Shown here: in pieces, positions 1-31,901 of the stretch
Layout: each line of letters opens with the position of its first letter
How positions within the stretch are numbered: position 1 is the stretch's first letter
NCBI GenBank assembly: GCA_963832655.1
Contig: CAWHUW010000005.1
Coordinates: 257,156 to 321,155 of the forward strand
Length of the DNA: 64,000 bases
Direction of reading: 5' to 3'
Origin: an uncultured Thermoleophilia bacterium
GTDB lineage: Bacteria > Actinomycetota > Thermoleophilia > UBA2241
The notes under the pieces: model-generated
Seen by the model: only the letters and a program-made list of their open reading frames with translations
Told to the model about the DNA's origin: nothing
The model's database searches: none
Translations under genes and position numbers: made by a program

Positions 1-2823
<2,823 letters not shown>

Positions 2824-2934
2824 CCCGGCGTCAGGCCGGCGGCGCCGGGTGCGCTGTCGAGCCGGCGGCCTTCGCCGAGGCGGTCGGCGCAACGCCGGCG
2901 GTGCCGCCACCGGAGCGCTGCCGCCCTCCTCCGC

Positions 2935-3888
2935 CACCCTCACCCCATCCGCGCTCACCGCGCGCAGCGACTCGACCTCGATGAAGATGCGGTTCACCTC
3001 GGGGTGATCGGCCGTGATGCGCTCCTCGATGCGGTGGATCGCGGCGTGGATCTCCTCGGCGCCCGTCCCCGGCGCGAACTCGACCTCGAGGTTGAGCAGG
3101 ACCTCCTCGGGGCCGAGGTGCATGGTGAGCACGGCGCCGACCCCGGTGACGACCGGGTCGTCACCGGCGAAGCGGCGCACGTCGTCGACAAGGTGCGGGT
3201 CGGCGCTCTCGCCGACGAGCAGGCCCTTGCTCTCCCAGGCGAGCCAGACGGCGACGACGCAGAGGATGCTGCCGATGACGATCGAGGCCGCGCCGTCGAT
3301 GTAGGGGTTCTCGAGCTCGTGGGCGAGGAAGATGCCGACGAAGGCGACGACCAGGCCGGCCAGCGCCGCCGAGTCCTCGAAGAGCACCGTGAAGAGGCTC
3401 GGGTCCTTGCCATGGTGGATGGCGCTGAGCGCGCGCCGGTCGCCCTTCATCGTCCTGAACGCCCGGTAGGCGACCGTGAACGAGATGCTCTCGAAGATCA
3501 TCGCCAGACCAAGGACGATGTAGTTGATGGTCGGGTTCGTCAGCTCGCTGGGGTGCTGGATGTGCAGGATGCCCTCGTAGATGGACATGCCGCCGCCGAT
3601 GCCGAAGATGCTGATCGCGACGATCAGGCTCCAGAAGTAGAGCTCCTTGCCGTAGCCGAACGGGTGCGTGGCGCTGGGCGGCCGCGAGCTGCGCTTGATG
3701 CCGAGGAAGAGCAGGGCGCCGTTGCCGGTGTCGACGAGGGAGTGGATGCCCTCGGAGAGCATGGCCGAGCTGCCGGTGATGGTGCCGGCGACGAACTTGA
3801 TGACGGCGATCGCGGCGTTGCCGATGATCGCCGCGATGACGGCCTTCTTCGACTCCTGATGTGCCATGGCGCAAGCGTACCGTGCCAT
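2935..3888 (-). CDS. Cation diffusion facilitator (CDF) family divalent-metal efflux transporter. The 3' end is uncertain because there is no in-frame stop before the homopolymer block.
   Basis: N-terminal ~315 aa of ORF 1180..3888(-) shows the CDF TM and cytoplasmic domain pattern (SEGIHSLVDTGNG, HPFGYGKELYFWS, HLGPEEVLLNLEVEF). Confidence 0.7.
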
Positions 3889-3973
3889 AGGGGCGGCGTC
3901 ACGGGGCGGGCGGGGGCGCGAGAGCGCCCGCCCCGCCCAGAGCCGAGCCGCCCTCTGCTACGCTACGGGCACG

Positions 3974-4708
3974 ATGCTGCGCGCCGTCACTCTCGACTTC
4001 TGGAACACCCTCTTCGTCGACCATCGCGGGCGCGAGCGCGAGCATCGGCGCGCGGCCTGGCTGCGCGCCGAGCTCGACGCGCTCGGCGCGCATCCCACTG
4101 ATGGCGCGATCGCCGACGCGCTGCGCGCCGGCTTCGACTACTTCGACCTCATCTGGCACGACGAGCAGCGCACGCCGCCGGCGAGCGAGACGACGGAGGC
4201 GACGCTCGCGGCGCTCGGCGTCCGCCTCCCCGAAGACCGCTTCGCGCGCACCGTCGAGCACTTCGAGCAGCTCATCCTCGAAGTGCCACCCGAGCCCGTC
4301 GCCGGGGCGGTCGGCGCGCTGACGACGCTGGCCGAGCGTTACAGGCTGGCCGTCGTGTGCGACACCGGCTACTCGCCGGGAAGCGTGCTCACCAAGCTCC
4401 TCTCCCGCCACGGGATGCTCGAGCCGTTCAGCTACCTCTTCTTCTCCGACGAGCACGGCATGTGCAAGCCTGACGTTCGCGTGTTCAAGCACACGCTGGC
4501 GCAGCTCGGCGTGCGCGCCGGCGAGGCGGCGCACGTCGGCGACATGCAGCGCACCGACATCGCCGGCGCCCAGGCCGCCGGCATGATGGCCGTCCACTTC
4601 GTCGGCGCCAACAACCGCGACTCCGGGCGCTCCACGGCCGACCTCGTCGTGCGCCACTTCGACGAGCTGCCCGCGGCCCTCGGCGGCCTCATCTGCGCCG
4701 GCTGCTGA
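3974..4708 (+). CDS. HAD-superfamily hydrolase (haloacid dehalogenase-like).
   Basis: MLRAVTLDFWNTLF (DxD-like motif I region), an FSDEHGMCKPD motif, and a C-terminal GDMQRTDIAGAQAAGMMAV motif IV. ATG at 3974. Confidence 0.65.
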   Translation: MLRAVTLDFWNTLFVDHRGREREHRRAAWLRAELDALGAHPTDGAIADALRAGFDYFDLIWHDEQRTPPASETTEATLAALGVRLPEDRFARTVEHFEQLILEVPPEPVAGAVGALTTLAERYRLAVVCDTGYSPGSVLTKLLSRHGMLEPFSYLFFSDEHGMCKPDVRVFKHTLAQLGVRAGEAAHVGDMQRTDIAGAQAAGMMAVHFVGANNRDSGRSTADLVVRHFDELPAALGGLICAGC

Positions 4709-7528: not shown

Positions 7529-7731
7529 AGGTCGGTATGATACCCGCCCCGGCGCCAGGCCTCCGCGCGAGCTTCGCCAGACCCACTGTTGATGCCGGCC
7601 GCCTGCGAATCGCATAATGGGCTACATGCATCCACGGAGCCGTGCGGGAAGGAGGCGGCGACCAGCACGACGCTCCGCAGCCAAGGGGGAGCGGGCCTCC
7701 CGGCCCGGGAACGGCTACAAAGGAGCACGGG

Positions 7732-9133
7732 GTGAGATCTCGCATCGTCGCCGTCGCCGTCATCGCGCTGCTGATAGCGCTGGCCCTGGTCCAGGGGACC
7801 GCGGCGGCCTGCACCACCATCATCGTCGGCAAGGACCTGACCGCCGACGGGTCAGTCCTCATCTCGCACAACGAAGAAGACAGCGGCACTGTCGTGATGC
7901 ACTACGTCGTGGCGCCGGCCGGGCCGGGCAGTGACTACGAGCTGTACTCAGGGGGCGCAGTCGCTGAGCCCGCGCGCACCGTCGCCTACATGGGCTCGAG
8001 CGTCTGGGACAAGGGCTACATCCCCGGCGACTTCATCGGCGGGGTGAACAGCCATCAGGTCGCGATCTACAACAACATGACCTACAGCCGCGAGTACCCC
8101 GAGGATCCCTGGGAAGTCCATCCCGGGGGCGTCATCTGGACGGAGTTCAACCTTCTGGCTTCGCTGCAGGCCAAGACGGCGCGCCAGGCCGTGAAGATCA
8201 TGGGGAACCTGTCCGAGACCCTCGGGCTGAGCTCCGACCCCGGTACCTCGTTCGGCATCGCCGATGCCAAGGAGGGCTGGTGGATCGACATCGCCCGCGG
8301 TGGTCAGTGGGTCGCCCAGCGCGTGCCCGACGACGAGGCGCAGGTGATCGCCAACTGCTTCCGCATCGGCGAGGTGGACTTCGGCAACAAGCACGACTTC
8401 ATGTGGTCGTCGGACATCATCGGCTACGCGGTGGAGAAGGGCTGGTACGACCCCACGAGCGGCGCGCCGTTCAACTTCGCCGAGGTGTACGGCGAGGCCG
8501 AGAGTCTCGTGGACCCGTACAACACCGTGCGCCACGAGATGGTCCAGCAGCGTCTCGACTCGCTCGACGAGATCGGCGCCGGGGACCTCATGGACATCAT
8601 GAGCTGGCACTTCGAGGGCACCGAATATGACCTGAGCAACGGCTACGCCTCGTCGCCCCACACCATGCCCGGGGTGCGCAGCATCTGCCGGACCAACACG
8701 CAGGTGAGCGAGGTCACGCAGCTGCGCGGCTGGCTGCCAGCGCCCATCGGCGCGGTCGTCTGGACGAGCATGCGCACGCCGTGCAGCGGCGCCTACGTGC
8801 CCTGGTACATGGGCATCACCGACGTCCCGGAGCCGTACAAGACCGGGACGGACGAGATCAAGCGAGGGATCCGCCTGGTGGGCCTTCCGCGACCTCGACG
8901 CGTACGTGAACAGCCACTACAAGGACACGATCCCGACCGTCCGCGGCACGTGGCAGCCGTTCCAGGCGCAGATGCTCGCCGATCAGGCGGCCTTCGAGCG
9001 CGCGGTCCTCAAGCTCTACAAGAAGGACTCGAGAGCGGCGAAGGCGATGCTGACGGCATACTCGGGGGAGCTCGGGATGCAGGCCTACGAGACGGCCGGT
9101 TCCCTGCTCGAGCAACTGACCGCCGAGGAGTGA
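7732..9133 (+). CDS. Peptidase C69 family dipeptidase, secreted. There is a frameshift near ~8865.
   Basis: Signal peptide followed by the AACTTIIVGK Cys nucleophile motif. A strong AAGGAG RBS lies 7 nt before GTG 7732. The C-terminal segment AWWAFRDLDAYVNSHYKD... continues in ORF 8906..9133. Confidence 0.7.
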
Positions 9134-13556: not shown

Positions 13557-14721
13557 GTGAAGCCGGCGACCACCGGCCAGGTCGCGCACGGCCCCGGGGC
13601 CGGCGACGTCTGGGTCTTCGTCGAGCAGCGCGACGGCGTCGCGGCCGAGGTCAGCCTGGAGCTGCTCGGCCGCGCCCGCGAGCTCGCCGACCGGCTCGGC
13701 GTCAAGGTCGGCGCCGTGCTGGCCGGGGCGGGCGAGGCCGTCAAGGCCCTCGCGCCCGCCCTCGTCGCCCGCGGCGCCGACACCGTGTACCTCGCCGACC
13801 ACGAGCATCTCGGGCAGTACCTCGCCATGCCGTACACGAGCCTCGTCGCCGGCCTCGTCCGCCGGCATCAGCCGCAGATCGTCCTCTACGGCGCGACGAC
13901 CACCGGCCGCGACCTCGGCCCGCGCGTCGCCAGCACCCTGCGCACCGGCCTGACCGCCGACTGCACCGACCTGCGCATCGGCGACCTCGAGATGAAGGGC
14001 ATCGTCACGCGGGACCTGCTGTACCAGATCCGTCCCGCCTTCGGCGGCAACATCATCGCGACGATCGTGAGCCCCGAGCACGTGCCGCAGATGGCGACCG
14101 TGCGCGAGGGCGTCATGGTCATGCCTGAGGCGGACGAGGCGCGGACCGGCGAGATCGTCGACGGTGGCCGTCCAGCGCGGCCATGCGGCCGCGGCCGACG
14201 GCCCCATCCTGCTCCCCGACGCCGACTTCGCCGTGCGCGTCGTGCGCCGCGTCCAGGAGGAGAAGACGGTCGACCTCAAGGGCGCCCGCATCGTCGTCTC
14301 GGGCGGCGTCGGGGTCGGCTCGCGCGAGGGCTTCGCCCTCGTCGAGCAGCTCGCCGACGCCCTCGGCGGCGTGGTCGGCGCCTCGCGCGCCGCGGTCGAC
14401 GCCGGCTGGATCGCCCACGACCACCAGGTCGGGCAGACCGGCGTGACCGTGCGCCCCAAGCTCTACATCGCCTGCGGCATCTCCGGCTCGGTCCAGCACC
14501 GCGCCGGCATGGACCAGTCGGCGCGCATCCTCGCCATCAACAGCGACCCCGGCGCGCCGATCTTCGCGGTCGCGCACTACGGAATCGTCGGCGACCTGCA
14601 CAAGGTGATCCCGATGCTGATCAAGGCCTACCGGACGAAGGGCGCGGCGGCCGTGCCGGGCGCCGCGATGGCGACCGGAGCCGGGGCGGGCGCCGCAAGC
14701 GCAGCGGAAGGCGGCGCCTGA
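13557..14721 (+). CDS. etfA: Electron transfer flavoprotein alpha subunit. There is a frameshift near ~14160.
   Basis: [11 protein letters not shown]...[13 protein letters not shown]-terminus; the C-terminal FAD-binding part ([16 protein letters not shown]...[15 protein letters not shown]) is in ORF 14164..14721. A GAGGAG SD lies before GTG 13557. Confidence 0.8.
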
Positions 14722-16461
14722 TGCCCAACTTCTACACCGACAACCCGGACCTCGCCGCCCAGCTCGACCGTCTCGACCTCGGCGCGCATCGTCGCCTGGC
14801 GCGAGGACGACTACGCCCAGGCGCGCGACTTCGCCTACGCCCCGCGCGACTACGAGGACGCGCTCGACTCGTACCGGCGCACGCTCGAGATCGTCGGCGA
14901 CATCGCCGGCGACTTCGTCGAGCCCCGCGCCGAGGACGTCGACCGCGCCGGCAGCGTGCTCGCCGACGGCGAGGTCTGCTACGCGCCCGGCATCGCGGAA
15001 TCGCTCGAGCGCCTGCGCCAGGCCGACCTCATGGGCATCACCTTGCCGCGCGAGTACGGCGGCCTCAACTTCCCCATCACCGTGTCGGTGATGATCGTCG
15101 AGATGGTCTCGCGCGCCGATCCGGCGCTGATGAACATCTTCGGCCTCCAGGACATCGCCGAGACGGTCAACAAGTTCGCCTCCGACGAGATGAAGGCGGC
15201 CTACCTGCCGCGCTTCGCCAGCGGCGAGGTCACGGGCTCGATGGCGCTGACCGAGCCCGAGGCCGGCAGCGACCTGCAGAACGTCCAGCTCAAGGCGACC
15301 CCGGCCGAGGACGGCACGTGGCGGCTCAACGGCGTCAAGCGCTTCATCACCAACGGCTGCGGCCGCATCAGCCTCGTCCTCGCGCGTTCGGAGGAGGGGA
15401 CGACCGACGCCCGCGGCCTCTCGATGTTCCTCTACGAGCGCGACGAGCACATGCGAATCCGGCGCCTCGAGGACAAGCTCGGCATCCACGGCTCGCCGAC
15501 CTGCGAGCTGCAGTTCGACGACGCGCCGGCGCTGCTCGTCGGCGAGCGCCGGCGGGGGCTCACGACCTACGTCATGAGCCTCATGAACGGCGCCCGGCTG
15601 GCGATCGCGGCGCAGGCGCAGGGCATCGCCGAGGCCGCCTGCCGCGCCGCTGTGAAGTATGCCGGCGAGCGCGTGCAGTTCGGCGCGCCGATCGCGACGC
15701 TCACCCCGGTCGCGGCCATGCTGGCCGACATGAGGGTGAGCGTCGAGGCGGCGCGCGCCCTGCTCTACGAGACCGCGCTGATCGTCGATCTCAAGGAAGG
15801 GCTCGAGCACCGCATCGCGCAACTGGCCGGCGGCGACGCGCCCGAGAGCGCGGCCGCGGAGATCAAGGACCTGCGCGCCGAGCTCAAGCGCTTCAACCGG
15901 CTCGCGAGCCTCTACACCCCGCTCGCCAAGGCCTGCTGCACCGAGATGGCCAACCAGGTGACCTACGACTCGCTGCAGGTGCACGGCGGCTCGGGCTACA
16001 TGCGCGACTTCGCCGTGGAGCGTCACGCCCGCGACGCCCGCATCACCAACATCTACGAGGGGACGACGCAGCTCCAGGTCGTCGCCGCGATCGGCGGCGT
16101 GCTCTCGGGGACGCTCTCAGACCGGCTCGACCACTACGACGCCGGCGACTACGCGCGCACGCCGGAGCTCCTGGCGCGCGTGCGCCACGCCCGCGCACGC
16201 CTCCAGGCCGCGATCGACCACGTCCGCGCGCTCGACGACACGCGCTACCGCGACTTCCACAGCCGGCGTCTGGTGGAGATGGCGATCGACGTGACCTGCG
16301 GCTACCTGCTGCTGCGCGACGCGCAGGGGGACGCCCGCAAGCTGCTCGTGGCGCGGCACTTCGTCGCCGCGATGGCGGGACGCGTGGAGGGGGCGGCGGC
16401 GATGGTGATCGCCGGCGACCCCGGCCAGCTCGACGAGTTGGCCGCCCTCGCCGGCGACTGA
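14721..16461 (+). CDS. Acyl-CoA dehydrogenase (long, ~580 aa type), immediately after etfBA. There is a frameshift near ~14785.
   Basis: [11 protein letters not shown] start (ATG overlaps the etfA TGA). The body is ORF 14956..16461, with IYEGTTQLQV near the C-terminus. Confidence 0.8.
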
Positions 16462-16520: not shown

Positions 16521-18707
16521 CTACCCGTACGCCTCGACCCGGTTCTTGCCGCCGCGCTTGGCCTTGTACAGCGCCGCGTCGGCATTGCGGACCAGCTCCT
16601 CGACCGTATCGCTGAGGCCGGGGAACGAGGCCACGCCGACGCTCACCGTGAGGCAGGTGCCCGGACGCCCGGTGATGCCGACGAGGCAGGCGCGCTCGAA
16701 CCGCGCCCGCACACGCTCCGCGACCGCCTCGGCGCCGTCAAAGTTGCCCGGAGCCGGCTCGAGCGGAGCGGTCTCGCCTTCGACGGTCCCGGTCTCGGCA
16801 GGCACCGGCATCGCGAGCTGCGGATCGGCCGCGCCGTCGAGCGGCGTGTTGGGGAGGATGATCGCGAACTCCTCGCCGCCGTAGCGGGCCGCGATGTCGA
16901 TGTCGCGGCGCAGGGCCGCGCCGAGGATGCCGGCGACGGCGCGCAGCACCTCGTCGCCGGCGACGTGACCGCGGCTGTCGTTGAAGGCCTTGAAGTCGTC
17001 GATGTCGACCATCAGCAGTGACACCGGTGAGCCATACCGCTGCGCCCTTGCGACCTCCTGGCCGAGACGCTCGTAGAAGTAGCGGTGGTTGTACAGGCCG
17101 GTGAGGCCGTCGGTGATCGCCCGCTGCTCGCTGACGCGGTACAGACGGGCGTGCTCGATCGCCACCGCGGCCTGCTCCGCCAGCGCCTCCGCCAGTTCGA
17201 GTTCCTCGGGCGTGAACCGTCGCTCGCGCTCCGTCTCGATGAGCACGAGCAGACCGTACGGCTCGTCGTTGAACACCAGCGGCACGTTCAAGTAGGCCTT
17301 GTCGCCGAACTTCTCGAAGGAGATCCGCGCCCCGGGCGTGACGTCGGGGTCGGAGGCGATCTGCTCGACGGGGACCTTGCCGTCGATGATCGCCCGTTCC
17401 TCCGGTTCATCGTCGAGCGTGAACGTCTCGTGCAGCGACTCGAGAGCGGCGGGGTCGGGCTCGCGCATGTACATCGCCGACACCGTGACGGTGTTCGCGC
17501 CGGCGTCGAACTCCTGGATCTGGCACTGCTGGCAGTCCAGGGCCTCCGCCGCCGTGCGGGCGACAGTCTGCAGCACCTCCTCGAGGTCGACGGTGGAGGT
17601 GATCGCCTTCGTCGACTGGAGCAGCGAGTCGAGGCGCCGGTTCTGCTCCTCGAGGCGCTGAAGGACCTGGGCGTTGCGCATCGCGATCGCCGCCTGCTCG
17701 GCCAGCGCTCCGGCGATCTCGCGCTCGTCGCTCGTGAAGTGCCGCTCGGCTTCGGTCTCGACGAAGACGAGCAGGCCGATCGGCCGGCCTTCGTCCTCGA
17801 GCGGGACGCTCATGATCGTCTTCTCCCCGTTCTCGATCATGGAGCGGCGGTTCGCCTCGTCCAGCGTCGGGTCGGAGATCTGCTCCTCCTGTATCCGGCC
17901 GCCGTAGAGAGTGGCACGGTCGCTGGGGAAGTCCCGCAGCGAGTAGGACCGGCCGACCCAGTCCCTGTCGTCCTTGCCGGGGGTGCGCTGGTAGAAGGCG
18001 GCGATACTGATGGTCTCGCTCTCGGCGTCGTACGAGTCGATGGCGCACTCCGTCGTCCCCAGGGCTTCGGCCGCCGCCCGCGCGACCGTCTGCAGAAGCT
18101 CGTCCAGGTCAAGCGTCGAGGAGATGGCGCGACCGGCGTCGACCAGCGCGCGCAGCCGCCGGTTCTGCTGCGCCTCCCGGCGGAACATGCGCGCGTTGTG
18201 GATCGCGACGGCAGCCGGCACGGCGAGCTGTGCAAGCAGCCTGTGCTCCTCCAGGGTGAAGCAGCGCCGCGTACGCTTCTCGACAAGCGTGAGCAGCCCG
18301 ATCGCCTCGTCGTTGAAGATGAGCGGCGCCGACAGGTTGGTGTGCTCGTGCCACTGCTGCATCTCCCGCAGGTGAGCCGGGTCGAGACCCTGGTCGTCGA
18401 GCTGGAACTCATGGACGCCGCCGGTCTCGATGAGCTCGCGAAACGTGGGCCGCTCGGCGATGTCCACCGCCGTCCCTATCCAGGACCGGTCCGCGGCCGT
18501 GATCTCGCGCGCCCACAAGGCCGTCGCGAGGAGCCTTCCCTCGAGCGGCCTGTACTCGTAGACATTGCACTCCCAGACGTCGAAGAGCTCGGTCAGGCGA
18601 CGGGCGATGGTCGACAGCACGTCGTCGAGCTCGAGGCTCGACGACACGGCGGCGCCCACCTCGAGCGCGAGTTCCAGTTGATCGCGCTTGTCGCTGACCT
18701 GGGTCAC
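16521..18707 (-). CDS. Diguanylate cyclase with three N-terminal GAF domains (GAF-GAF-GAF-GGDEF).
   Basis: 728 aa; RYGGEEFAIILPNT (GGEEF motif) and DGLTGLYNHRYF; three repeated GAF-like blocks, each ending in ...AVAIHNARLY / MRNAQ-like helices. Confidence 0.8.
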   Translation of the reverse strand: MTQVSDKRDQLELALEVGAAVSSSLELDDVLSTIARRLTELFDVWECNVYEYRPLEGRLLATALWAREITAADRSWIGTAVDIAERPTFRELIETGGVHEFQLDDQGLDPAHLREMQQWHEHTNLSAPLIFNDEAIGLLTLVEKRTRRCFTLEEHRLLAQLAVPAAVAIHNARMFRREAQQNRRLRALVDAGRAISSTLDLDELLQTVARAAAEALGTTECAIDSYDAESETISIAAFYQRTPGKDDRDWVGRSYSLRDFPSDRATLYGGRIQEEQISDPTLDEANRRSMIENGEKTIMSVPLEDEGRPIGLLVFVETEAERHFTSDEREIAGALAEQAAIAMRNAQVLQRLEEQNRRLDSLLQSTKAITSTVDLEEVLQTVARTAAEALDCQQCQIQEFDAGANTVTVSAMYMREPDPAALESLHETFTLDDEPEERAIIDGKVPVEQIASDPDVTPGARISFEKFGDKAYLNVPLVFNDEPYGLLVLIETERERRFTPEELELAEALAEQAAVAIEHARLYRVSEQRAITDGLTGLYNHRYFYERLGQEVARAQRYGSPVSLLMVDIDDFKAFNDSRGHVAGDEVLRAVAGILGAALRRDIDIAARYGGEEFAIILPNTPLDGAADPQLAMPVPAETGTVEGETAPLEPAPGNFDGAEAVAERVRARFERACLVGITGRPGTCLTVSVGVASFPGLSDTVEELVRNADAALYKAKRGGKNRVEAYG

Positions 18708-20839
18708 GCGTCCTCCGCGTCCGGCGACGCCGAATCCTCGAAGACCTCGGTCCGGTTCTTGCCGGAACGCTTGGCCGCGTAGAGCGCCTTGTCGGCGTTG
18801 CCGACGAGCTCGGCGGCCTCGGGCTTACCCTGGCCGAAGGCGGCGACCCCGACGCTCACCGTGACGTGCGCGTATCGGCGACCGCCGCGTCCGGCGAACG
18901 CCTGCGTGGCGACCGCCTCGCGCAGGCGCTCGCCGACGATCGCGGCGCCGGCGCCGGGCGGCGGCAGTTCCTCGTCGAGACCCTCGAGCTTGCTGCACAC
19001 GCGGCGGCCCACGCACTGCGCGCCCGAGACCGTCGTATGCGGAAGGATCACGGCGAACTCCTCGCCACCGTAGCGCGCCGGGATGTCCACCCCACGGCGG
19101 ATCGAGTCGGCGAGGACACGTCCTACCTCACGGAGTACCTCGTCCCCCATTTGGTGCCCGTGCTCGTCGTTGAAGCGTTTGAAGTCGTCGACGTCGATCA
19201 TCAGCAGCGAGAGAGGAAGTCCATACCGCCACGCCCGCTTGCACTCCTGATCCAGCCGCTCCTGGAAGTGGCGGTGGTTGTAGAGCCCGGTGAGGCCGTC
19301 GCGGACGGCCTGCTCCTGGACCTGCCGGTACAGGCTCGCGTTCGCCAGCGCGACCGCCGCCTGGTTGGCAAGCACCTGCAGCGCCTCGATCTCGCCGACG
19401 AGGAAGGCCCGCCTGCCCGGGACCGCGACACGGATGAAGCCCTCGGCGCGGCCCTTGGCGACCAGCGGCACGACGAGAGACGAGCCGGTCACGTCGACGA
19501 CCTGGGCCGGGCGCAGCGCGTCGAGCGCCTCGCGGGCCACAGCCGGAGGCTCGACCGCGGACGCCGCCGCTTGCGGGCCGGCCCCCAGGTCCTCGCCGGC
19601 CGCGCCGGCGGGGGTGAAACCGCCGCCGCCGACGCGCAGCCAGACGTCGGCCTCGGCCCCGTCGACGAAGAGCTGCCGCGCGCCTTGAACCACTGCCTCC
19701 GCCACGGCCCCGGGGTCGAAGGTCGAGCTCAGAGCGCGACTGGTGTCGAACAGCCCGAGCAGCCGCGCACTCTGGACCTTGCGGGCGCGGTAGAGGCGGG
19801 CGTTGTGCAGTGCCGCGCTGGCGAGCTCTCCCATGCTTCTGATGAGCTCGATCTCCTCCAGTTCGAACGGCCGCTCCTCCACCATGTCGTACAGGCGCAG
19901 GATACCGACCGGCTCGCCGCGGAAGGCGAGCGGCACGCTGAGCACGGTCTTCTCATCCCACGCCGTCATCGATGCCTTGCGGTCGTCGGGCAGTTCCGGG
20001 TCGGACGCGTGCTCCACGACGACGGTGCCGCCGGCGAGGATCGCCCGGTCTCCGGGGTAGGCGTCGAGGGCGTACTTGGTGCCGAGCTCGTCGTCCGGCT
20101 CGACATCCGGCGGGGCGAAGCGCTCGTGGAGTGCGCGATAGACGATGCTGTCGGTCGCGGACTCGTACTCGTAGATGACGCTCTGCGACACGTCGGCGAC
20201 CTCGGCCACGGCGCGGCCCACGCTGCTGAGGACCTCGTCGAGGTCCATCGTCGCGGTGATGGCCAGGGTCGCGGCCAAGACGGCCGCGAGGCGCCGCGTG
20301 TGCTCGGCCCGGTCGCGATAGGCACGCGCGTTGCGCATCGCGATCGCCGCCGGGCCGGCGAGGAGCTCGAGCAGGTGCTTGTCCTCGGCGCTGAAACGGC
20401 GTTCGCGGCGCTCGCGCTCGGCGACGCAGAGCACGCCCAGTACCTCGTCGCCATACACGAGCGGCGCCTCGAGGCTGGCGAGCTCTCCCCACCGCAGCAT
20501 GAGATCGCGCTCCCCCTCGCGGAGGGCCGCGTCATCGACGTACTCCTCGAGCAGGACGCCGTCCTCGAGCACCGCCCGGACGCCGTCACGTTCGTCGATT
20601 GGCACGACGGTGCCCACGTAGGCCTCTTCGTCGGGGTCGGGCAGCGGCGTCCACTCCGCTGCACAGGTCATCGTGTCGTTCGCCGCGTCGTACTCGTGGA
20701 TGTCGCAGTACTGGACGTCGAGCGCCTCACCGACCTGTCGCGCGATGGTGGCAAGCACGCGCTCGAGGTCCAGGGAGCCCGTCAGCGTGGCGCCGACCTC
20801 GAGCACGGTCTCGTAGAGCCCGGCGCGGCCGCTAGTCAC
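18704..20839 (-). CDS. Diguanylate cyclase, second GAF-GAF-GAF-GGDEF paralog.
   Basis: RYGGEEFAVILPHT, DGLTGLYNHRHF. The GTG start is 4 nt after the stop of the upstream paralog, and the stop overlaps the downstream paralog's start. Confidence 0.8.
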   Translation of the reverse strand: MTSGRAGLYETVLEVGATLTGSLDLERVLATIARQVGEALDVQYCDIHEYDAANDTMTCAAEWTPLPDPDEEAYVGTVVPIDERDGVRAVLEDGVLLEEYVDDAALREGERDLMLRWGELASLEAPLVYGDEVLGVLCVAERERRERRFSAEDKHLLELLAGPAAIAMRNARAYRDRAEHTRRLAAVLAATLAITATMDLDEVLSSVGRAVAEVADVSQSVIYEYESATDSIVYRALHERFAPPDVEPDDELGTKYALDAYPGDRAILAGGTVVVEHASDPELPDDRKASMTAWDEKTVLSVPLAFRGEPVGILRLYDMVEERPFELEEIELIRSMGELASAALHNARLYRARKVQSARLLGLFDTSRALSSTFDPGAVAEAVVQGARQLFVDGAEADVWLRVGGGGFTPAGAAGEDLGAGPQAAASAVEPPAVAREALDALRPAQVVDVTGSSLVVPLVAKGRAEGFIRVAVPGRRAFLVGEIEALQVLANQAAVALANASLYRQVQEQAVRDGLTGLYNHRHFQERLDQECKRAWRYGLPLSLLMIDVDDFKRFNDEHGHQMGDEVLREVGRVLADSIRRGVDIPARYGGEEFAVILPHTTVSGAQCVGRRVCSKLEGLDEELPPPGAGAAIVGERLREAVATQAFAGRGGRRYAHVTVSVGVAAFGQGKPEAAELVGNADKALYAAKRSGKNRTEVFEDSASPDAEDA

Positions 20840-22958
20840 CGAACACCTCGACGCGGTTCTTGCCCATGCGCTTGGCCAGATAGAGGGCCTTGTCCGCCTC
20901 CCTGACGAGCTCGTCCGGGTCCGCGGCGCCGGGGTGGGCGGCCACACCGACGCTCACCGTCACACCGACGGCGCCGACCGCCGGCCACCGACGCGGCCTC
21001 GACGACCCGGCGGATGCGTTCGCCGACGATGCGCGCGCCCTCGCCCCGCTCTGACGGCAGCGCCGGGTCCCGGGAGGCGGCCACGCCTCGACGGCGAGCA
21101 GGCCGTCGAGCGCGGCGATCTCCCGGACGATGCGGTCGCCGACGACCTCGGCACCCTCGCGCGCCGTGTTGGGCAGGATCACGGCGAACTCCTCGCCCCC
21201 GTACCGCGCGGCCACGTCCACATCGCGTCGCAACTGCGTCGCGAGCAGCCGGCCCACCTGCGCCAACACCAGGTCGCCGGCCGGGTGGCCGTACTGATCG
21301 TTGAAGGCTTTGAAGTCGTCGATGTCGAGCATGAGCAGCGAGAGGGGCAGACCATAGCGCTGGGCGCGGGCGGACTCCTGCGCGAGCCGCTCGTAGAAGT
21401 AGCGGTGGTTGTACAGACCGGTGAGGCCGTCGGTGATCGCCTGCTCCTGCACGGTCCGGTAGAGGCGCGCGTTGGCGAGCGCCGCGGTCGCCTGGCTCGC
21501 GAGGATCTGGACCATCTCGACGTCCTCGGCGTCGAAGGGGCCCCGGCCGGCGACCGCGACCTCGACACAGCCTTCGACCTCGTCGCCGGCCGTGAGCGGA
21601 GCGACCAGGCGGACGCCGTCGGCTCCGGATTCCTGCGCCGGGCGGCGGTCGGCGACCGCGGTCCGACGCAGTTCGTCCTGCTCTTCACCGTCGCCGTCGG
21701 CCCTCGCTCCGAGCGACACCGTGACGCCCTCGTCCGGCGCCGCGAAGAGCTCCGAGATGGCAGCGCACGTGTCGTGGAGGACGGCCTCGACGTCGAGTGA
21801 CGCCGCCAGCGAGCGGCTCGTCTCGAGCAAGGCCAGGAGCCGGCGGTTCTGCTCCTCCTGCTCGCGGTGGAAGCGTGCGTGGACGATGGCCACGGCGGCC
21901 TGTTCGCCGAGGGCCCTCGCCAGCTCTGTCTCGTCCGGCGAGAAATGCCGTTCGCGATCGGCCTCGATGAGGATCAACTCGCCGACCGGCGTCCCCTCGA
22001 AGAGCATCGGCACGTTGAGGCACGTTCTCTCGCCCCAATCTGTCATGGCCTCGCGGACGAAGGGATCAAGCGAGGGATCCGAGACGCGGTCCTCGACGAT
22101 CGCTCCTGAATGCAGCATCTCGCGATCACCAGGCCGCTCGTCGACATCGTACTCGGCGCCGATCTGTGCTTGCGCGTCCTCGCTCGGCTCGGCCTGGTAG
22201 ATGGCGCGGAACACGAAGACCTCGCGCTCCGCGACGTACTCGTAGATCACGGCCTCGGCGGTCTCGAGCGCCGAGGCCGCCTCGCGGCAGACGACGTTGA
22301 GGATGTCCTCGAGGACGACGGCCGACGTCAGGGTCCGGCTGGAGTCAAGCAGCGACGCCAGATGACGCGCCTGGTCCTCCTCACGACGATAGAGGCGGGC
22401 GTTGTTGACCGCGACGGCCGCAGGGATCGAGAGCAGCCGGACGAGTTCCTTGTCGTCCGCCGTGAAGTGCCGGACCTCGCGCTTCTCGATGAGCGTGAAG
22501 CACCCGATCACGCGATCCTCGAAGACCAGCGGCACCGACATCGTCGCCAGCTCGCCCCACTCCTCCATGAGCTGGCGGTCGAGCGCGTCGGTGCCCTCGG
22601 TGTCGTCGTAGCTCTCGTCGGTGGCGCCTTCGAGCAGGACCCGATGGTAGCTCGGACGATCGGCCAGCGACCATGCGGTGCCGATCCAGTCGTGGTCCTC
22701 CTGCGTCATCTCGCGCGCCCAGGCCGTCGTGGCCACGATGGTCTCGCTGTCGGGGTAGTACTCGTAGATGTCGCACTCCCAGACGTCGAGCGCCTCGGCG
22801 ATGCGGCGAGCCACGCTCCCCAGGACCTCTTCCAGCGCGAGACTGGAGGTGAGGGCGGCCCCCACCTCGCAGGCGATCTCGTGATGACTCTTGACGGCCG
22901 CGTGTCCACGCACGGGCGACGCTCCTGTTCGTACTCCTGCGAGTATCGGCACGCGCAC
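20832..22958 (-). CDS. Diguanylate cyclase, third GAF-GAF-GAF-GGDEF paralog. An imperfect internal duplication causes a local frame disturbance near the C-terminus.
   Basis: RYGGEEFAVILPNT, DGLTGLYNHRYF, 708 aa. Confidence 0.75.
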   Translation of the reverse strand: MRVPILAGVRTGASPVRGHAAVKSHHEIACEVGAALTSSLALEEVLGSVARRIAEALDVWECDIYEYYPDSETIVATTAWAREMTQEDHDWIGTAWSLADRPSYHRVLLEGATDESYDDTEGTDALDRQLMEEWGELATMSVPLVFEDRVIGCFTLIEKREVRHFTADDKELVRLLSIPAAVAVNNARLYRREEDQARHLASLLDSSRTLTSAVVLEDILNVVCREAASALETAEAVIYEYVAEREVFVFRAIYQAEPSEDAQAQIGAEYDVDERPGDREMLHSGAIVEDRVSDPSLDPFVREAMTDWGERTCLNVPMLFEGTPVGELILIEADRERHFSPDETELARALGEQAAVAIVHARFHREQEEQNRRLLALLETSRSLAASLDVEAVLHDTCAAISELFAAPDEGVTVSLGARADGDGEEQDELRRTAVADRRPAQESGADGVRLVAPLTAGDEVEGCVEVAVAGRGPFDAEDVEMVQILASQATAALANARLYRTVQEQAITDGLTGLYNHRYFYERLAQESARAQRYGLPLSLLMLDIDDFKAFNDQYGHPAGDLVLAQVGRLLATQLRRDVDVAARYGGEEFAVILPNTAREGAEVVGDRIVREIAALDGLLAVEAWPPPGTRRCRQSGARARASSANASAGSSRPRRWPAVGAVGVTVSVGVAAHPGAADPDELVREADKALYLAKRMGKNRVEVFGD

Positions 22959-23075
22959 GCGTATCCATAAGAGGCGACACTAGGAGAACCGTCTAGGCGC
23001 AGGCTGCGCCGGCAGGGACGGCGGCGAGCTCGCGGGCCTCGCGCCGCGCCGGGAGGCGCCGCGCGCCCGAAGCGG

Positions 23076-24464
23076 CTAGACGCGCGGCGCCGGCGGGCGG
23101 GGGTGCGCCGGGCGGAACCGCTCGCGTACTGCGTCGAGGGTGCAGAGAAGCGCGGCGAGCTGCGCCTGCACCAGCGTGCGCACCGGCACGGGCTCGATCG
23201 CTCCGGCGGACGCGAGGCGCGAGGCGCGCGTCCGCACCCTGTCCTCGGCCGCCGCCTGGACCGCGGCAAGCCTGTCGGTCTGCCGCGTCTCGGCGGCGGC
23301 CATGCTCGCAAGGTGCCCGACGCGGGAGAGCACATCGAGCTCGCGCAGATAGACCGAGCTGAAGAGCTGGGCGACCGTCGCCTCCTCCGCGAACTGAGGC
23401 TCGCGGGCGACCATCTCGGCCTCGGCCCGCAGGTCGTCGTTGCTGCCCACCAGATAGGCGTGCAAGGACCGCTGCCAGGGCGACTCGCCGGTGAGCTCGC
23501 TCGCCGCCTCGACGTAGCGCTCGTGCAGCCAGGCGGCGTACTCGCGCTCCATCTCGATGCCGCGCCTGACGGCCTCGCCCCGGGTCACGCCCGCCGGGCT
23601 CAGGTCGGCGGCCTTCGCGCTCGTGAAGAACGGCACCTCGGCGACGAGCGTGAAGCAGTCCCACACGGCCTCCGCGTAGGCGTCGCTCGAGGTGCCGCCC
23701 TGCAAGGCGACGGCCGGCTCGACGCCGTAGCGGGCGAAGTACTCGTAGTCGTCGGAGAGGTCGAACGCCTCGAGGACGGCATCGCCGAAGGCGTTGAGGT
23801 AGGGCATCTCGGGCTCGCCGCGGTGAGGCGGCAGCCCCGCTGCCGCGAGCACCGCGGCGAGCTCGTCGGTGAGCTTGGGATCGTCGTGCGAGACGTAGAA
23901 GTAGGCGCCGCTGCAGTGGCTGTTGTGCAGGCCCATGTAGAGGTCGAGCGGCGCGCGGCCGACGACCTCCATGACCGCGCGCGCCTCCGGCAGGGGCCTG
24001 GCGAACGCGTACCGCTTGTAGTCGAAGGGGAACGTCCACTCGAACTGCTCGACGAACGGCGGCCGGTACTGGCGGAGCAGGAAGCCGGCGAGGTCGCCCG
24101 GCTCGGCGAACCAGTCCTCGTTGAGCCGCATGCCGTCGGGATCGCAGACCTTCACGACCGAGAACGAGAAGCCCAGCCGGTCGGCCAGGTCGGTCTCGGC
24201 CAGCAGCGGCAGGAGGTACTCGAGCATCAGGGTCCCGATGGGCTCTTCGGGGTGCGGGGCGCCGACAAGAGCGGCGCGCAGAGGCCCTCCGCCGACCTCG
24301 AGGCAGCGGATCTCGTGCCCGCTGCGCGACGCGCCCGCGCGCCAGACCTTGACGGCGGGGTGCGCGGCGATGAGGCGGTCGGTCGACGCCTCCAGCGCCT
24401 CGAGGGGCAGGTACCGCTCGTACGCCGGCACGCCGGCGACGATGTCGTCGTAGCGCGGGAACAT
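23076..24464 (-). CDS. M14-like zinc carboxypeptidase / succinylglutamate-desuccinylase-fold protein (DUF2817-like).
   Basis: GAPHPEEPIG (HxxE zinc-motif region) and MGLHNSH second His. AAGGTGG SD before ATG 24464. Same strand as, and ~117 bp upstream of, the three diguanylate cyclases. Confidence 0.5.
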   Translation of the reverse strand: MFPRYDDIVAGVPAYERYLPLEALEASTDRLIAAHPAVKVWRAGASRSGHEIRCLEVGGGPLRAALVGAPHPEEPIGTLMLEYLLPLLAETDLADRLGFSFSVVKVCDPDGMRLNEDWFAEPGDLAGFLLRQYRPPFVEQFEWTFPFDYKRYAFARPLPEARAVMEVVGRAPLDLYMGLHNSHCSGAYFYVSHDDPKLTDELAAVLAAAGLPPHRGEPEMPYLNAFGDAVLEAFDLSDDYEYFARYGVEPAVALQGGTSSDAYAEAVWDCFTLVAEVPFFTSAKAADLSPAGVTRGEAVRRGIEMEREYAAWLHERYVEAASELTGESPWQRSLHAYLVGSNDDLRAEAEMVAREPQFAEEATVAQLFSSVYLRELDVLSRVGHLASMAAAETRQTDRLAAVQAAAEDRVRTRASRLASAGAIEPVPVRTLVQAQLAALLCTLDAVRERFRPAHPRPPAPRV

Positions 24465-25050: not shown

Positions 25051-25530
25051 ATGCCCCAGCAGCGCCCCCGAGGCACCCAGACCAGCGTCGTCCTCTCGTC
25101 CCTCATGATGCCGGCCGACGCCAACTTCATGGGCAACATCCACGGCGGCGTCATCATGAAGCTCATCGACGAGGCGGCGGGCACGTGCGCGTTCCAGTTC
25201 TGCCGCACGCTCGTGGTCACCGCCGCGATCGACCGCATCGACTTCCACTACCCCGTGCAGGTCGGCAACCTCATCACGCTCAAGGCCAACATGAACTACG
25301 CGGGCACCAAGTCGATGGAGGTGGGGGTCCGCGTCGAGGCCGAAGACCTGAGCACCGGCGTCATCACGCACTGTGCCTCGGCCTACCTCGTGTTCGTGGC
25401 CTTGGGCGACAACGGACTGCCCATCCGGGTTCCCCGGTTGACGCCGCGCTCGGCGCAGCAGAAGCGCTGGTACGAGGAGGCGCAGGCGCGCCGCGCCAAA
25501 CGGCTCGCCGAGCGTCAGCCGGCCGACTGA
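25051..25530 (+). CDS. Hotdog-fold acyl-CoA thioesterase (YciA-like).
   Basis: MPADANFMGNIHGGVIMKLIDEAAG ... VFVALGDNGLPIRVP. Confidence 0.7.
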   Translation: MPQQRPRGTQTSVVLSSLMMPADANFMGNIHGGVIMKLIDEAAGTCAFQFCRTLVVTAAIDRIDFHYPVQVGNLITLKANMNYAGTKSMEVGVRVEAEDLSTGVITHCASAYLVFVALGDNGLPIRVPRLTPRSAQQKRWYEEAQARRAKRLAERQPAD

Positions 25531-28099: not shown

Positions 28100-29252
28100 A
28101 TGAAGCTCAGCGACGCGTGGCCCGAGGCGGCGAGAGACGGGAGCGACCCCGAGGGCGAGCCCAGGACCAACGTGAGCGACCTCGTCGACGGCGAGACCGT
28201 GACGAGCTCCTACGTGTGCTCGGAGCGCGACGTCAGGACGACGAAGAACGGCGGGACGATGGTCAACCTCACCCTGCTCGACGCCACCGGGCAGGTCAAG
28301 GGGGTCCACTTCGACCCGTCGGAAGAGGTCGTCGCGACGCTCGCGCCGGGTAGCGTCGTCAAGGTGCGGGGCACGGTACAGGGTCGACCCCAAGTGGGGG
28401 CCGCAGCTCGTCGTCGACAGACTGCGCACGCTGAGCGAGGGCGAGTACGACCCCGCCGCCCTGGTCCCCGTGTCGCCGATCGGGGTCGACGAGCTCCGCG
28501 CCCGGCTCGCGGCGCTGATCGGGAGTGTCACCGAGCCACACGTGAGGGCACTGCTCGAGCGCGCCCTGGACCCGGACCGCGAGCCGGGCGCGACCTACGC
28601 CGTCGCCCCCGCGGCGGTGCGCATGCATCACGCGTATCGGCACGGGCTGCTCGAGCACTCGGTGATCGTCGCCGAGGTAGCCGCCGGCGTGGCCGAACGG
28701 CTGCCGACCGTCGATCGCGACGTCGTCGTCGCCGGCGCCCTGTTGCACGACATCGGCAAGGTCGTGAGCTACTCGAGCGACCCCTTCGCGCCCGGCTTCA
28801 CCGACGTCGGGCGCCTGCACGGCGAGATCGTGCTCGGACACGACATGGTGCGCGGCCTCATCGGCGAGGTCGACGGCTTCCCGGAGGAGCTCTCCTCGCG
28901 TCTGCGCCACGTCATCGTCGCCCACCACGGCGAGAAGGAGAAGGGAAGCCCCGTCATTCCGATGACGCGCGAAGCGATCGTCGTCCACTACTGCGACGAC
29001 ATGACGGCGCGGGTGGCGGCGGTCGACGACGCGGAGCGCGCGACCGCCGCCGGCGAGCGCTGGTCGGCCTTCAGCCGCATGCTCGACACCTTCGTCTACC
29101 TCGGCGACGGGGAGGCGGGAAGCGAAGGCGGACGCGTTGCGGAGGGCGTCGCCGGCCGGACGGCGGAGGAGGATCCGGCGCCCGCGAGGCCGCGCGACGA
29201 CGCGGAGCCCGTCGCGGCAGACGACGAGCCGCCGTCGCTGTTCACGGAGTAG
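28100..29252 (+). CDS. OB-fold + HD-domain 3'-5' exoribonuclease (YhaM-like). There is a frameshift near ~28385.
   Basis: N-terminal OB-fold segment (TKNGGTMVNLTLLDATGQVKGVHF), HD motifs HHAYRHGLLEHS ... ALLHDIGK ... HVIVAHHG, AAGGAGG RBS. Confidence 0.6.
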
Positions 29253-31454: not shown

Positions 31455-31901
31455 TCACTCGGCGCTTGCGCGCTCCTCGTCGGCCTCGGGCTCCGCGACG
31501 GCCTCTTCGACCTCGACGGCCTCCTCGACCTCTTCGGCCACGATCTCCTCGGCGACCTCTTCGGCCACGATCTCCTCGGCGACCTCTTCGGCCACGATCT
31601 CCTCGGCGACCTCTTCGGCCACGATCTCCTCGGCGACCTCTTCGGCCACGATCTCCTCGGCGACCTCTTCGGCCGGGGCCTCCGCAGCCGGAGCGGCTGC
31701 GGCCGCCACCGGCCGCACGTTGGCGGCCTGGTCGCCCTTGCGGCCCTGGGTGACCTCGAACTCGACCACCTGGTCGGTCTCGAGCGACGTCACGCCCTCG
31801 GCGAGGCCGGTGACGTGCACGAAGATGTCGCTGTCGTTGTCCTGCGCGATGAACCCGTAGGCCTTCTCGGTCGAGAACCATTTGACTTTGCCTTGAGGCA
31901 C
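31455..31901 (-). CDS. Cold-shock-domain protein (CspA family) with an acidic C-terminal tandem-repeat tail.
   Basis: VPQGKVKWFSTEKAYGFIAQDNDSDIFVHVTGL (cold-shock domain), then (EEVAEEIVA)x5 and an EEAVEVEEAVAEPEADEE tail. Confidence 0.8.
   Translation of the reverse strand: MPQGKVKWFSTEKAYGFIAQDNDSDIFVHVTGLAEGVTSLETDQVVEFEVTQGRKGDQAANVRPVAAAAAPAAEAPAEEVAEEIVAEEVAEEIVAEEVAEEIVAEEVAEEIVAEEVAEEIVAEEVEEAVEVEEAVAEPEADEERASAE
31527..31674. repeat. Five and a half tandem copies of a perfect 27-bp repeat (gacctcttcggccacgatctcctcggc) inside the csp gene.
   Basis: Seen directly. It encodes the 9-aa acidic repeat and causes the shadow ORF 30779..31753 with PRRPLRPRS repeats. Confidence 0.9.

Follow-up and report, generated by a model that had tools for sequence, protein, structure and literature searches.

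Four genes on the minus strand of an uncultured Thermoleophilia bacterium, named here pepX, DGC3, DGC2 and DGC1 by their order of transcription, probably form a single operon. They lie in a stretch of 64,000 nucleotides (nt), hereafter the window (contig CAWHUW010000005.1 of assembly GCA_963832655.1, positions 257,156 to 321,155 of the forward strand), with a G+C content of ~70%. The first gene encodes a cytoplasmic protein of predicted M14 metallocarboxypeptidase-like fold. The other three are paralogs, and each would encode a soluble diguanylate cyclase (DGC) in which three GAF domains precede a GGDEF domain that makes cyclic di-GMP (c-di-GMP). This explanation is considered probable as a whole. 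An earlier note on this DNA had described an operon of three paralogous GAF-GAF-GAF-GGDEF cyclases behind an M14-like gene, and the domain searches, the structural model of pepX and the conserved residues of pepX all agree with that description.

Domains, ancestry and boundaries of the cyclases

Pfam identifies the GGDEF domain in all three cyclases (E-values 7e-43, 2e-45 and 4e-43), with PF00990 scores of 147–155 bits against a cut-off of 23.8, and TIGR00254 scores of 160–168 bits. It also finds three GAF stretches per protein, the number proposed earlier. Scored singly, the nine GAF segments reach 28–59 bits, all above the PF01590 cut-off of 22.4, although the third domain (GAF3) of DGC3 and DGC2 is reduced and covers only profile positions ~78–133, the C-terminal half. 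The active-site motif GGEEF is present in DGC1, DGC2 and DGC3 and is invariant across all of their orthologs examined. The motifs D(I/V)DDFKxFNDxxGHxxGD and AKRxGKNR also occur in all three, and are invariant in an alignment of 105 sequences. Invariant residues across these family members are D530, D532, D533, K535, N538, H543 and D547, together with R570–F576, in the numbering of P0121, the closest intact DGC3 ortholog. The metal- and GTP-binding residues are presumably the equivalents of D327, N335, D344 and the C-terminal Lys/Arg of PleD. An RxxD inhibitory site (I-site), which the earlier note had suggested looking for, stands five residues upstream of GGEEF in each protein.

Some GGDEF domains, termed Hypr, form cyclic GMP-AMP (cGAMP) instead of c-di-GMP. 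According to work on GacA, this type reportedly has Ser instead of the guanine-reading Asp (the position of PleD D344). Since all three proteins retain this Asp as GD (GHPAGD, GHQMGD and GHVAGD), they are predicted to be ordinary c-di-GMP synthases and not of the Hypr type.

The catalytic domain has a family-wide insertion of 25–45 residues between the GGEEF strand and the VTVSxG strand, which includes a Pro-rich loop of the PPPxG type and splits the Pfam GGDEF match in two. In DGC3 and DGC2, the insertion carries an extra helix, GAEVVGDRIVREIAAL, a near-duplicate of the canonical helix that follows it (GARxVGERIRxxVE). The first copy has decayed to QLxMxL in DGC1. The helix between the two strands is present in DGC1 and DGC2, and in the assembled DGC3 it is replaced by 36 out-of-frame codons.

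The three cyclases are 39–43% identical to one another, and their paralogy, which the earlier note had read from a block shared by the first GAF domains (GAF1), is borne out, with the block present in all three proteins (DVWECDIYEY, DVQYCDIHEY and DVWECNVYEY). The block was also considered as a special cofactor site and rejected as such: a similar strand of the hIYEYD type recurs in the second and third GAF domains, which makes it the opening beta-strand of the fold.

In a neighbour-joining tree of 48 proteins, taken from 20 loci plus the window, each orthogroup is monophyletic (bootstrap 100 for DGC1, 100 for DGC2 and 99 for DGC3). Identity in this set is ~0.6 within orthogroups and 0.38–0.43 between them. 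Because the copies group by orthogroup and not by genome, the triplication is older than the clade, so that the phylogeny called for in the earlier note dates the duplications to before the divergence of these lineages. A recent tandem amplification is excluded by the 39–43% identity of the paralogs and by their grouping with orthologs from other genomes.

Divergence is unevenly distributed along the proteins. The N-terminal, catalytic half of the GGDEF domain is 66–71% identical between paralogs. In contrast, the GAF domains are 23–45% identical between paralogs and 49–62% identical within orthogroups. This is the pattern expected if the output has been conserved while the inputs diverged, and it fits the sensory sub-functionalisation that had been suggested for the three genes. 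Comparison with L087, a related contig, gives ratios of nonsynonymous to synonymous substitution (dN/dS) of 0.30 for pepX, 0.25 for DGC3, 0.36 for DGC2 and 0.22 for DGC1. These low ratios indicate that all copies are under purifying selection. DGC2 is the fastest-evolving copy (dS of 0.46 against 0.08 for its neighbours in the same comparison), and DGC1 is 96% identical to its L087 ortholog.

The nucleotide identity of the window to L087 is also mosaic. Identity is 93–99% in pepX, in the whole of DGC1 and over most of DGC3, with lower tracts in GAF1 of DGC2 (56–81%) and in parts of the second GAF domain of DGC3 and the C-terminal half of DGC2 (79–89%). The tracts lie at 20273–20871, 21671–22070 and 18681–19872 of the window, and the window's allele of DGC2 recurs almost unchanged on an independent contig, L092. 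This mosaic points to allelic replacement in the sensor domains, presumably by recombination.

An AlphaFold2 model of P0121 (mean predicted local distance difference test, pLDDT, 87.7) places three GAF domains on continuous helices (residues 152–197, 326–371 and 462–495) that lead into the GGDEF domain, with GAF3 as a small, five-stranded version. The canonical helix of the insertion is modelled with a pLDDT of ~94, and the extra helix before it with 52–70. Foldseek retrieves the phytochrome-activated cyclase IsPadC as the best match in the PDB (5llw, 5llx and 6et7; E 3e-24), and further matches are the tandem GAF domains of PDE2A, CyaB2 and PDE5/6. In a sequence comparison with the PDB, WspR and PleD come nearest to the catalytic domain (E 1e-28 to 4e-35).

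Judging from this fold, each protein would be a parallel dimer. Ligands bound by the GAF domains would send a signal down the long linker helices and the helix before DGLTG. The resulting change in the linker would shift the relative position of the two GGDEF domains and thereby set c-di-GMP synthesis, as in IsPadC. The three copies may feed different intracellular signals into a single c-di-GMP pool, with translational coupling keeping them co-expressed.

The gene boundaries differ in several respects from those of the open reading frames (ORFs). The long minus-strand ORFs run from 24464 to 23076, 22958 to 20832, 20947 to 18704 and 18707 to 16521, with coding-type G+C content at third codon positions (GC3) of 0.89–0.94. 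They are flanked by a convergent plus-strand gene that ends at 16461 and a divergent plus-strand gene that starts near 25051. The DGC3 gene most likely starts at GTG 22913, because AGGAG lies 8 nt upstream and the same start is found in P0121, its closest full-length ortholog. DGC2 starts at GTG 20839, inside GGTGACTAG, as in the gene calls for L087. The longest ORF, which starts at 20947, was rejected as the DGC2 gene, as its GC3 pattern shows that the first 36 codons overlap the end of DGC3 in the wrong frame. The DGC1 start is the GTG within GCGTGA, behind a GGAGG. The start codons of DGC2 and DGC1 thus overlap the preceding stops, and Shine–Dalgarno-like motifs lie upstream of both.

With these starts, the products are 693, 711 and 728 aa long, where the earlier note had given ~710–750 aa. 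Its 4-nt overlaps are correct for DGC2/DGC1 (GTGA), and for DGC3/DGC2 the overlap is one of 8 nt (GTGACTAG). The gene upstream on the same strand does have an M14-like fold (Foldseek probability 1.0), although the gap behind it, put at 117 bp, becomes 162 nt with the preferred start. Only 59 nt separate DGC1 from the next gene in the window. An Rfam search over the whole window returned no matches.

Positions of the genes, domains and sites of the locus in the window
Feature	Position	Strand	Description
pepX	23076–24464	-	462 aa; cytoplasmic, M14-fold metallocarboxypeptidase-like protein (predicted)
pepX-DGC3 spacer	22914–23075	-	162 nt to the preferred start; 117 nt to the longest-ORF start (22958)
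DGC3	20832–22913	-	693 aa
DGC3 GAF1	22407–22835	-	
DGC3 GAF2	21885–22313	-	
DGC3 GAF3	21477–21791	-	reduced
DGC3 GGDEF	20844–21440	-	
DGC3 I-site	21216–21227	-	RDVD
DGC3 active site	21186–21200	-	GGEEF
DGC3 GGDEF insertion	20979–21170	-	
DGC3 out-of-frame patch	20979–21086	-	36 codons within the GGDEF domain
DGC3 stop/DGC2 start overlap	20832–20839	-	GTGACTAG, 8 nt; GAGG 6 nt upstream
DGC2	18704–20839	-	711 aa
DGC2 GAF1	20339–20770	-	
DGC2 GAF2	19805–20248	-	
DGC2 GAF3	19346–19708	-	reduced
DGC2 GGDEF	18740–19309	-	
DGC2 I-site	19085–19096	-	RGVD
DGC2 active site	19055–19069	-	GGEEF
DGC2 GGDEF insertion	18830–19040	-	
DGC2 stop/DGC1 start overlap	18704–18707	-	GTGA, 4 nt; GGAGG 4 nt upstream
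DGC1	16521–18707	-	728 aa
DGC1 GAF1	18201–18632	-	
DGC1 GAF2	17679–18110	-	
DGC1 GAF3	17157–17588	-	full
DGC1 GGDEF	16533–17120	-	
DGC1 I-site	16896–16907	-	RDID
DGC1 active site	16866–16880	-	GGEEF
DGC1 GGDEF insertion	16640–16850	-	
Acyl-CoA dehydrogenase gene	14785–16461	+	convergent; downstream boundary of the array slot, outside the operon

A conserved slot with a variable array

The nearest genomes are metagenome-assembled genomes (MAGs) of uncultured Thermoleophilia. The same gene order is found in ~20 loci of this class, down to ~45–60% identity of pepX. A map of all loci shows that pepX and the convergent acyl-CoA dehydrogenase gene enclose a fixed slot, which holds a variable array of 0–4 members. 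The dehydrogenase gene keeps its position in all loci examined (90–93% identity in tblastn with the L002 and L007 proteins).

The most frequent arrangement, DGC3-DGC2-DGC1-DGC4, occurs at 13 loci. The window shares DGC3-DGC2-DGC1 with L087, L007 and L013, and other loci carry DGC3-DGC2-DGC4 (L015, L024), DGC1-DGC4 (L028, L038), DGC1 alone (L001/L009, L012), or DGC4 as the sole array member beside pepX (four genomes: L017, L021, L022 and L037). The slot is empty in UBA2241-type genomes, and L014 retains a remnant. DGC4, which is present in most relatives and missing from the window, is a ~500-aa protein with two GAF domains and a dead GGDEF domain, in which GGGRF stands for GGEEF and LDGEEE for DIDDFK. 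An example is found at 14358–15866 of L093, and others in L016, L018, L020, L094 and further loci. The array of the window derives by reduction from an ancestral array of four members, of which the last has this dead domain.

DGC3 and DGC2 are kept or lost together in every locus with enough sequence, over at least 3–4 independent losses, and DGC1 is kept or lost independently of them. A recent insertion of the array was considered, prompted by a relative with 76% pepX identity that has no cyclase and another, with 91%, that has one. In the latter, 35 residues of the DGC3 N-terminus (L001 11322–11426; 74% identical) remain just upstream of the sole cyclase, DGC1, and its single-cyclase state is therefore a deletion of DGC3 and DGC2. 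Together with the full arrays of more distant genomes, this remnant argues that the differences between arrays are losses, and recent insertion was rejected. The L001 sequence also contains many frameshifts, as is typical of noisy long-read assemblies.

The gene junctions are conserved as well. In 12 of the 17 arrays examined, that of the window included, the DGC3/DGC2 junction reads GGTGACTAG or GGTGACTGA, in most cases preceded by GGAGGTGTTC, although the proteins are only ~50% identical there. A variant, GGTGGCTGA, is found in L015. The stop codon of DGC2 is TGA in all 17, and in most it follows a G or an A, so that DGC1 could use a start overlapping this stop by 4 nt. Further overlaps are seen in L093, where pepX runs into DGC3 by 4 nt and the DGC1 stop into DGC4 by 8 nt.

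Coupled translation could also lead DGC3 and DGC2, and perhaps DGC1, to assemble into mixed dimers, in which one GGDEF pair would integrate two different sensor stacks, instead of each cyclase forming a homodimer. This is doubtful. Stop/start overlaps, above all the 8-nt junction, have been conserved over deep divergence, and the shared fate of DGC3 and DGC2, with DGC1 going its own way, is what such a pair would produce; however, single deletions also remove adjacent genes jointly, which makes co-loss weak evidence. Between the DGC3 and DGC2 of the window, identity is 71% in the helix before DGLTG, but conservation of the linker is expected from common ancestry. A catalytically dead fourth paralog in most relatives makes most sense as a partner or regulator. 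Against this, DGC1 persists alone in several genomes, so that at least DGC1 works without the others.

The out-of-frame patch in DGC3

DGC3 as assembled contains an anomaly within its GGDEF domain that the earlier note had overlooked. Residues 610–645 are out of frame relative to all orthologs: the ORF reads AWPPPGTRRCRQSGARARASSANASAGSSRPRRWPA here, and the neighbouring frame, according to the frame-0 translation and the shift in GC3, reads ...GEGARIVGERIRRVVEAASVAGG, the conserved helix. The patch thus replaces GARxVGERIRxxVE, a helix found in all 47 other sequences examined. Nucleotide alignment to L087, for which five independent contigs give an identical DGC3 protein, identifies one missing base at ~21088 (GTCGA[C]GG) and one extra base at ~20980 (GCCGG[C]GG) as its borders, 107 nt apart. 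The earlier statement that each cyclase has an intact active site consequently holds for GGEEF and for the three GGDEF matches, but not for the whole domain of DGC3 as assembled.

The patch is, with fair assurance, probably an error of the assembly consensus, and DGC3 would then be intact in the organism. Uncompensated frameshifts of 1 nt break three housekeeping genes of the window, namely ETF-alpha (~14163), an OB-fold/HD protein (28374–28402) and a MetX-like hydrolase (~33531). The error in ETF-alpha is an extra G right after GTCGAC, and the first indel of DGC3 likewise lies at GTCGAC. The same motif is found at 28383, inside the shift zone of the HD gene, and the MetX-like shift follows GATC. 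Two or three of the five indels in the window therefore fall at GTCGAC, a motif that, with its flanks, makes up ~1% of the window. Concentration of consensus errors at methylated motifs is known from nanopore long-read assemblies (PMC6591954). The other frameshifts, the context common to ETF-alpha and the first DGC3 indel, and an 809-nt poly-T/poly-G block elsewhere in the window are the reasons for regarding the patch as a probable artefact, and the set of indels suggests motif-linked consensus errors.

Somewhat unlikely, though by no means negligible, is a real double frameshift, in which a deletion of 1 nt was rescued by an insertion of 1 nt downstream. The canonical helix would then be an Arg/Ser/Ala-rich peptide, and the protein would be impaired, unless the duplicated upstream helix GAEVVGDRIVREIAAL stands in for it. 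The patch was first read in this way, and the reading was downgraded once the other frameshifts in the window had been found. The two indels compensate exactly, leaving the C-terminal 48 residues in frame, and neither is a simple change in homopolymer length. The near-duplicate helix just upstream could confer tolerance, and the linker around the patch is hypervariable between close strains. However, at least three other 1-nt frameshifts within 20 kb mark the assembly as indel-prone, with the ETF-alpha error in the very context of the first DGC3 indel. The helix is conserved in every other sequence examined, and the normal frame is found in L092 and on five independent contigs of the closest full-length ortholog.

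The explanation preferred here, with DGC3 intact, has several points to contend with. Independent random errors, at the error density of the window, would yield two compensating indels within 107 nt in an estimated ~5% of cases, and the pair could instead be a real frameshift rescued by a second mutation. A scan of the whole cluster for promoters and terminators, the pepX-DGC3 spacer included, scored no site, so that co-transcription of pepX with the cyclases over the 162-nt gap is only putative in the window. The I-site is not kept in distant DGC3 and DGC1 orthologs, and product inhibition is therefore not a fixed property of the family. Finally, the GAF domains have weak matches in the PDB (6OAP at 1e-7; GAF domains of DevS, phosphodiesterases and cyanobacteriochromes at 1e-4 to 1e-3), with no identifiable ligand class. 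All of these weigh against the explanation as a whole.

Two repetitive stretches of the window lie outside the locus. Positions 1771–2579 consist of 636 T followed by 173 G, an 809-nt block (detected with Tandem Repeats Finder) that explains the odd composition of bin 2001–4000. Almost certainly this block is filler or arose as an artefact of sequencing or assembly, and it may mark a mis-join. At 31475–31674, a unit of 27 nt occurs in 7.4 copies (90% identity), forming an in-frame repeat of nine residues within overlapping minus-strand ORFs.

The M14-like neighbour and known systems

The pepX family consists of ‘hypothetical proteins’ from Thermoleophilia MAGs. pepX has no Pfam or NCBIfam match, no match to PF00246 (Peptidase M14) even at E<=10, and no sequence match in the PDB. 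Four homologs with 31–57% identity (P0085, P0117, P0119 and P0120) pass PF00246 with 29–48 bits. The AlphaFold2 model is of high confidence (pLDDT 96.7; predicted template modelling score 0.94). Its first ~300 residues match the M14 carboxypeptidases D, N, M, A, B and T (Foldseek against the PDB; probability 1.0, E ~1e-9), and the best 50 of the 91 PDB chains matched at E<=1e-3 are all M14 carboxypeptidases or M14-like putative metallopeptidases. The catalytic domain comprises residues ~1–295, and a helical bundle at ~296–455 has no Foldseek match. In an alignment of 49 homologs, R134 and E276 never vary, and conservation is 90% or higher at H71, E74 and H180; their carboxypeptidase A roles are assigned by position and order, not by residue-level superposition. 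On its model, pepX has an M14-like fold, although it falls outside strict Pfam membership.

pepX is best described as a conserved and often co-transcribed neighbour of the cyclases, with a functional tie that is possible but finds no support beyond conserved synteny. A direct coupling, for which the chances are slim, would have the product of its peptidase or amidase activity, an amino acid or trimmed peptide, sensed by one of the GAF stacks, or the C-terminal bundle docked on the cyclase linkers. Every array-bearing locus has pepX upstream in the same orientation, the catalytic residues of pepX are conserved, and in distant relatives it overlaps the start of DGC3 by 4 nt (L093) or sits ~2–5 nt away, whereas the gap in the window is 162 nt. 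However, the two can be separated: pepX persists without any cyclase in UBA2241-type genomes, and the array of L094 persists though pepX is cut to a 98-aa remnant. Among the homologs of pepX with ~26–38% identity in Streptomyces, Amycolatopsis, Kutzneria, Nonomuraea and Kitasatospora, none has a relative of these cyclases next to it, apart from one distant GGDEF case. A conserved syntenic slot, with pepX at one end and the acyl-CoA dehydrogenase gene at the other, accounts for the adjacency equally well.

The remnant in L094 lies at 7708–8004; its first 64 residues align and the rest diverges, and downstream of it the array of four is intact. A second, more distant paralog of pepX (44–50% identity) is found elsewhere in L014 (1124–2455), L034 and L036, without a cyclase array or acyl-CoA dehydrogenase neighbour.

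It is very unlikely, though worth stating, that the slot pepX-DGC3-DGC2-DGC1(-DGC4) is a single machine. The M14-like enzyme would make or remove a signal, a small peptide or an amino acid, to which the GAF stacks respond, DGC3 and DGC2 would assemble during translation into an obligate heterodimer, and the dead DGC4 would act as a regulator in relatives. If true, this would be a circuit from peptide turnover to c-di-GMP of a kind that has not been described in any phylum.

More probably, the operon encodes separate GAF-regulated cyclases. The locus leaves existing knowledge of how such enzymes work unchanged. Its value lies in the slot, a natural series of 0–4 cyclases with stable orthogroups, conserved junctions and diverged sensors, in which it can be asked how paralogous cyclases split sensory labour and whether co-translated paralogs mix. 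The locus also carries a practical lesson: with motif-linked single-base indels apparent in the assembly of the window, odd stretches inside contig ORFs need comparison with orthologs before they are interpreted. In Thermoleophilia, a deep branch of Actinomycetota whose members are mostly uncultured, c-di-GMP signalling has, to our knowledge, hardly been studied. The sole characterised c-di-GMP target in this class is the RsiG-WhiG sigma/anti-sigma switch (PMC8325347). The habitat of the organism is described as soil or sediment.

Several known systems resemble parts of the locus. pepX has its fold in common with M14 metallocarboxypeptidases (carboxypeptidase D domain II, 1QMU; CPT, 1OBR; the putative metallopeptidase 2QVP; MpaA-like amidases), and shares with them the conserved HxxE...H zinc triad, the Arg and the Glu. 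Its actinomycete homologs have weak NCBIfam similarity to MpaA. It differs in having no signal peptide, an extra C-terminal helical bundle of 160 residues, and no PF00246 match.

For the cyclases, the best full-length structural match is IsPadC, the bacteriophytochrome-activated diguanylate cyclase of Idiomarina sp. (PDB 5LLW, 5LLX and 6ET7), which likewise has a linear stack of GAF-like sensor domains, long helices and a C-terminal GGDEF domain. IsPadC is a parallel dimer whose helical linker transmits the signal. In contrast to its PAS-GAF-PHY module and bilin chromophore, the cyclases here combine three plain GAF domains and lack both a PAS domain and a recognisable chromophore site, and sequence identity is ~16%. 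The GGDEF domains of PleD and WspR (PDB 1W25, 3BRE and 3I5C) share GGEEF, the RxxD five residues upstream and the GTP/Mg residues, but their input is a receiver domain instead of GAF domains, and they lack the insertion after the GGEEF strand. Another close system is Lcd1 of Leptospira interrogans, a GAF-GGDEF cyclase that binds cyclic AMP (cAMP).

The closest parallel to the array as such is also found in Leptospira interrogans, where seven PAS-GGDEF paralogs (LIC_11125–LIC_11131) form a tandem array with lineage-specific losses (PMC12943098). In both, paralogous sensor cyclases lie head to tail at one locus, and different lineages have lost different members. The earlier description of the triplet as unusual was overstated in view of this seven-gene array, and of the conservation and antiquity of the array here throughout its clade. 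The Leptospira array has PAS sensors and belongs to another phylum, whereas the present one has triple GAF domains and old copies (39–43% identity) that are translationally coupled within a fixed syntenic slot. GAF-GGDEF cyclases, control by the I-site and tandem arrays of paralogous cyclases are thus already known; what is specific to this locus is the triple-GAF input, the deeply conserved coupled junctions, the fixed slot with 0–4 members and the setting in Thermoleophilia.

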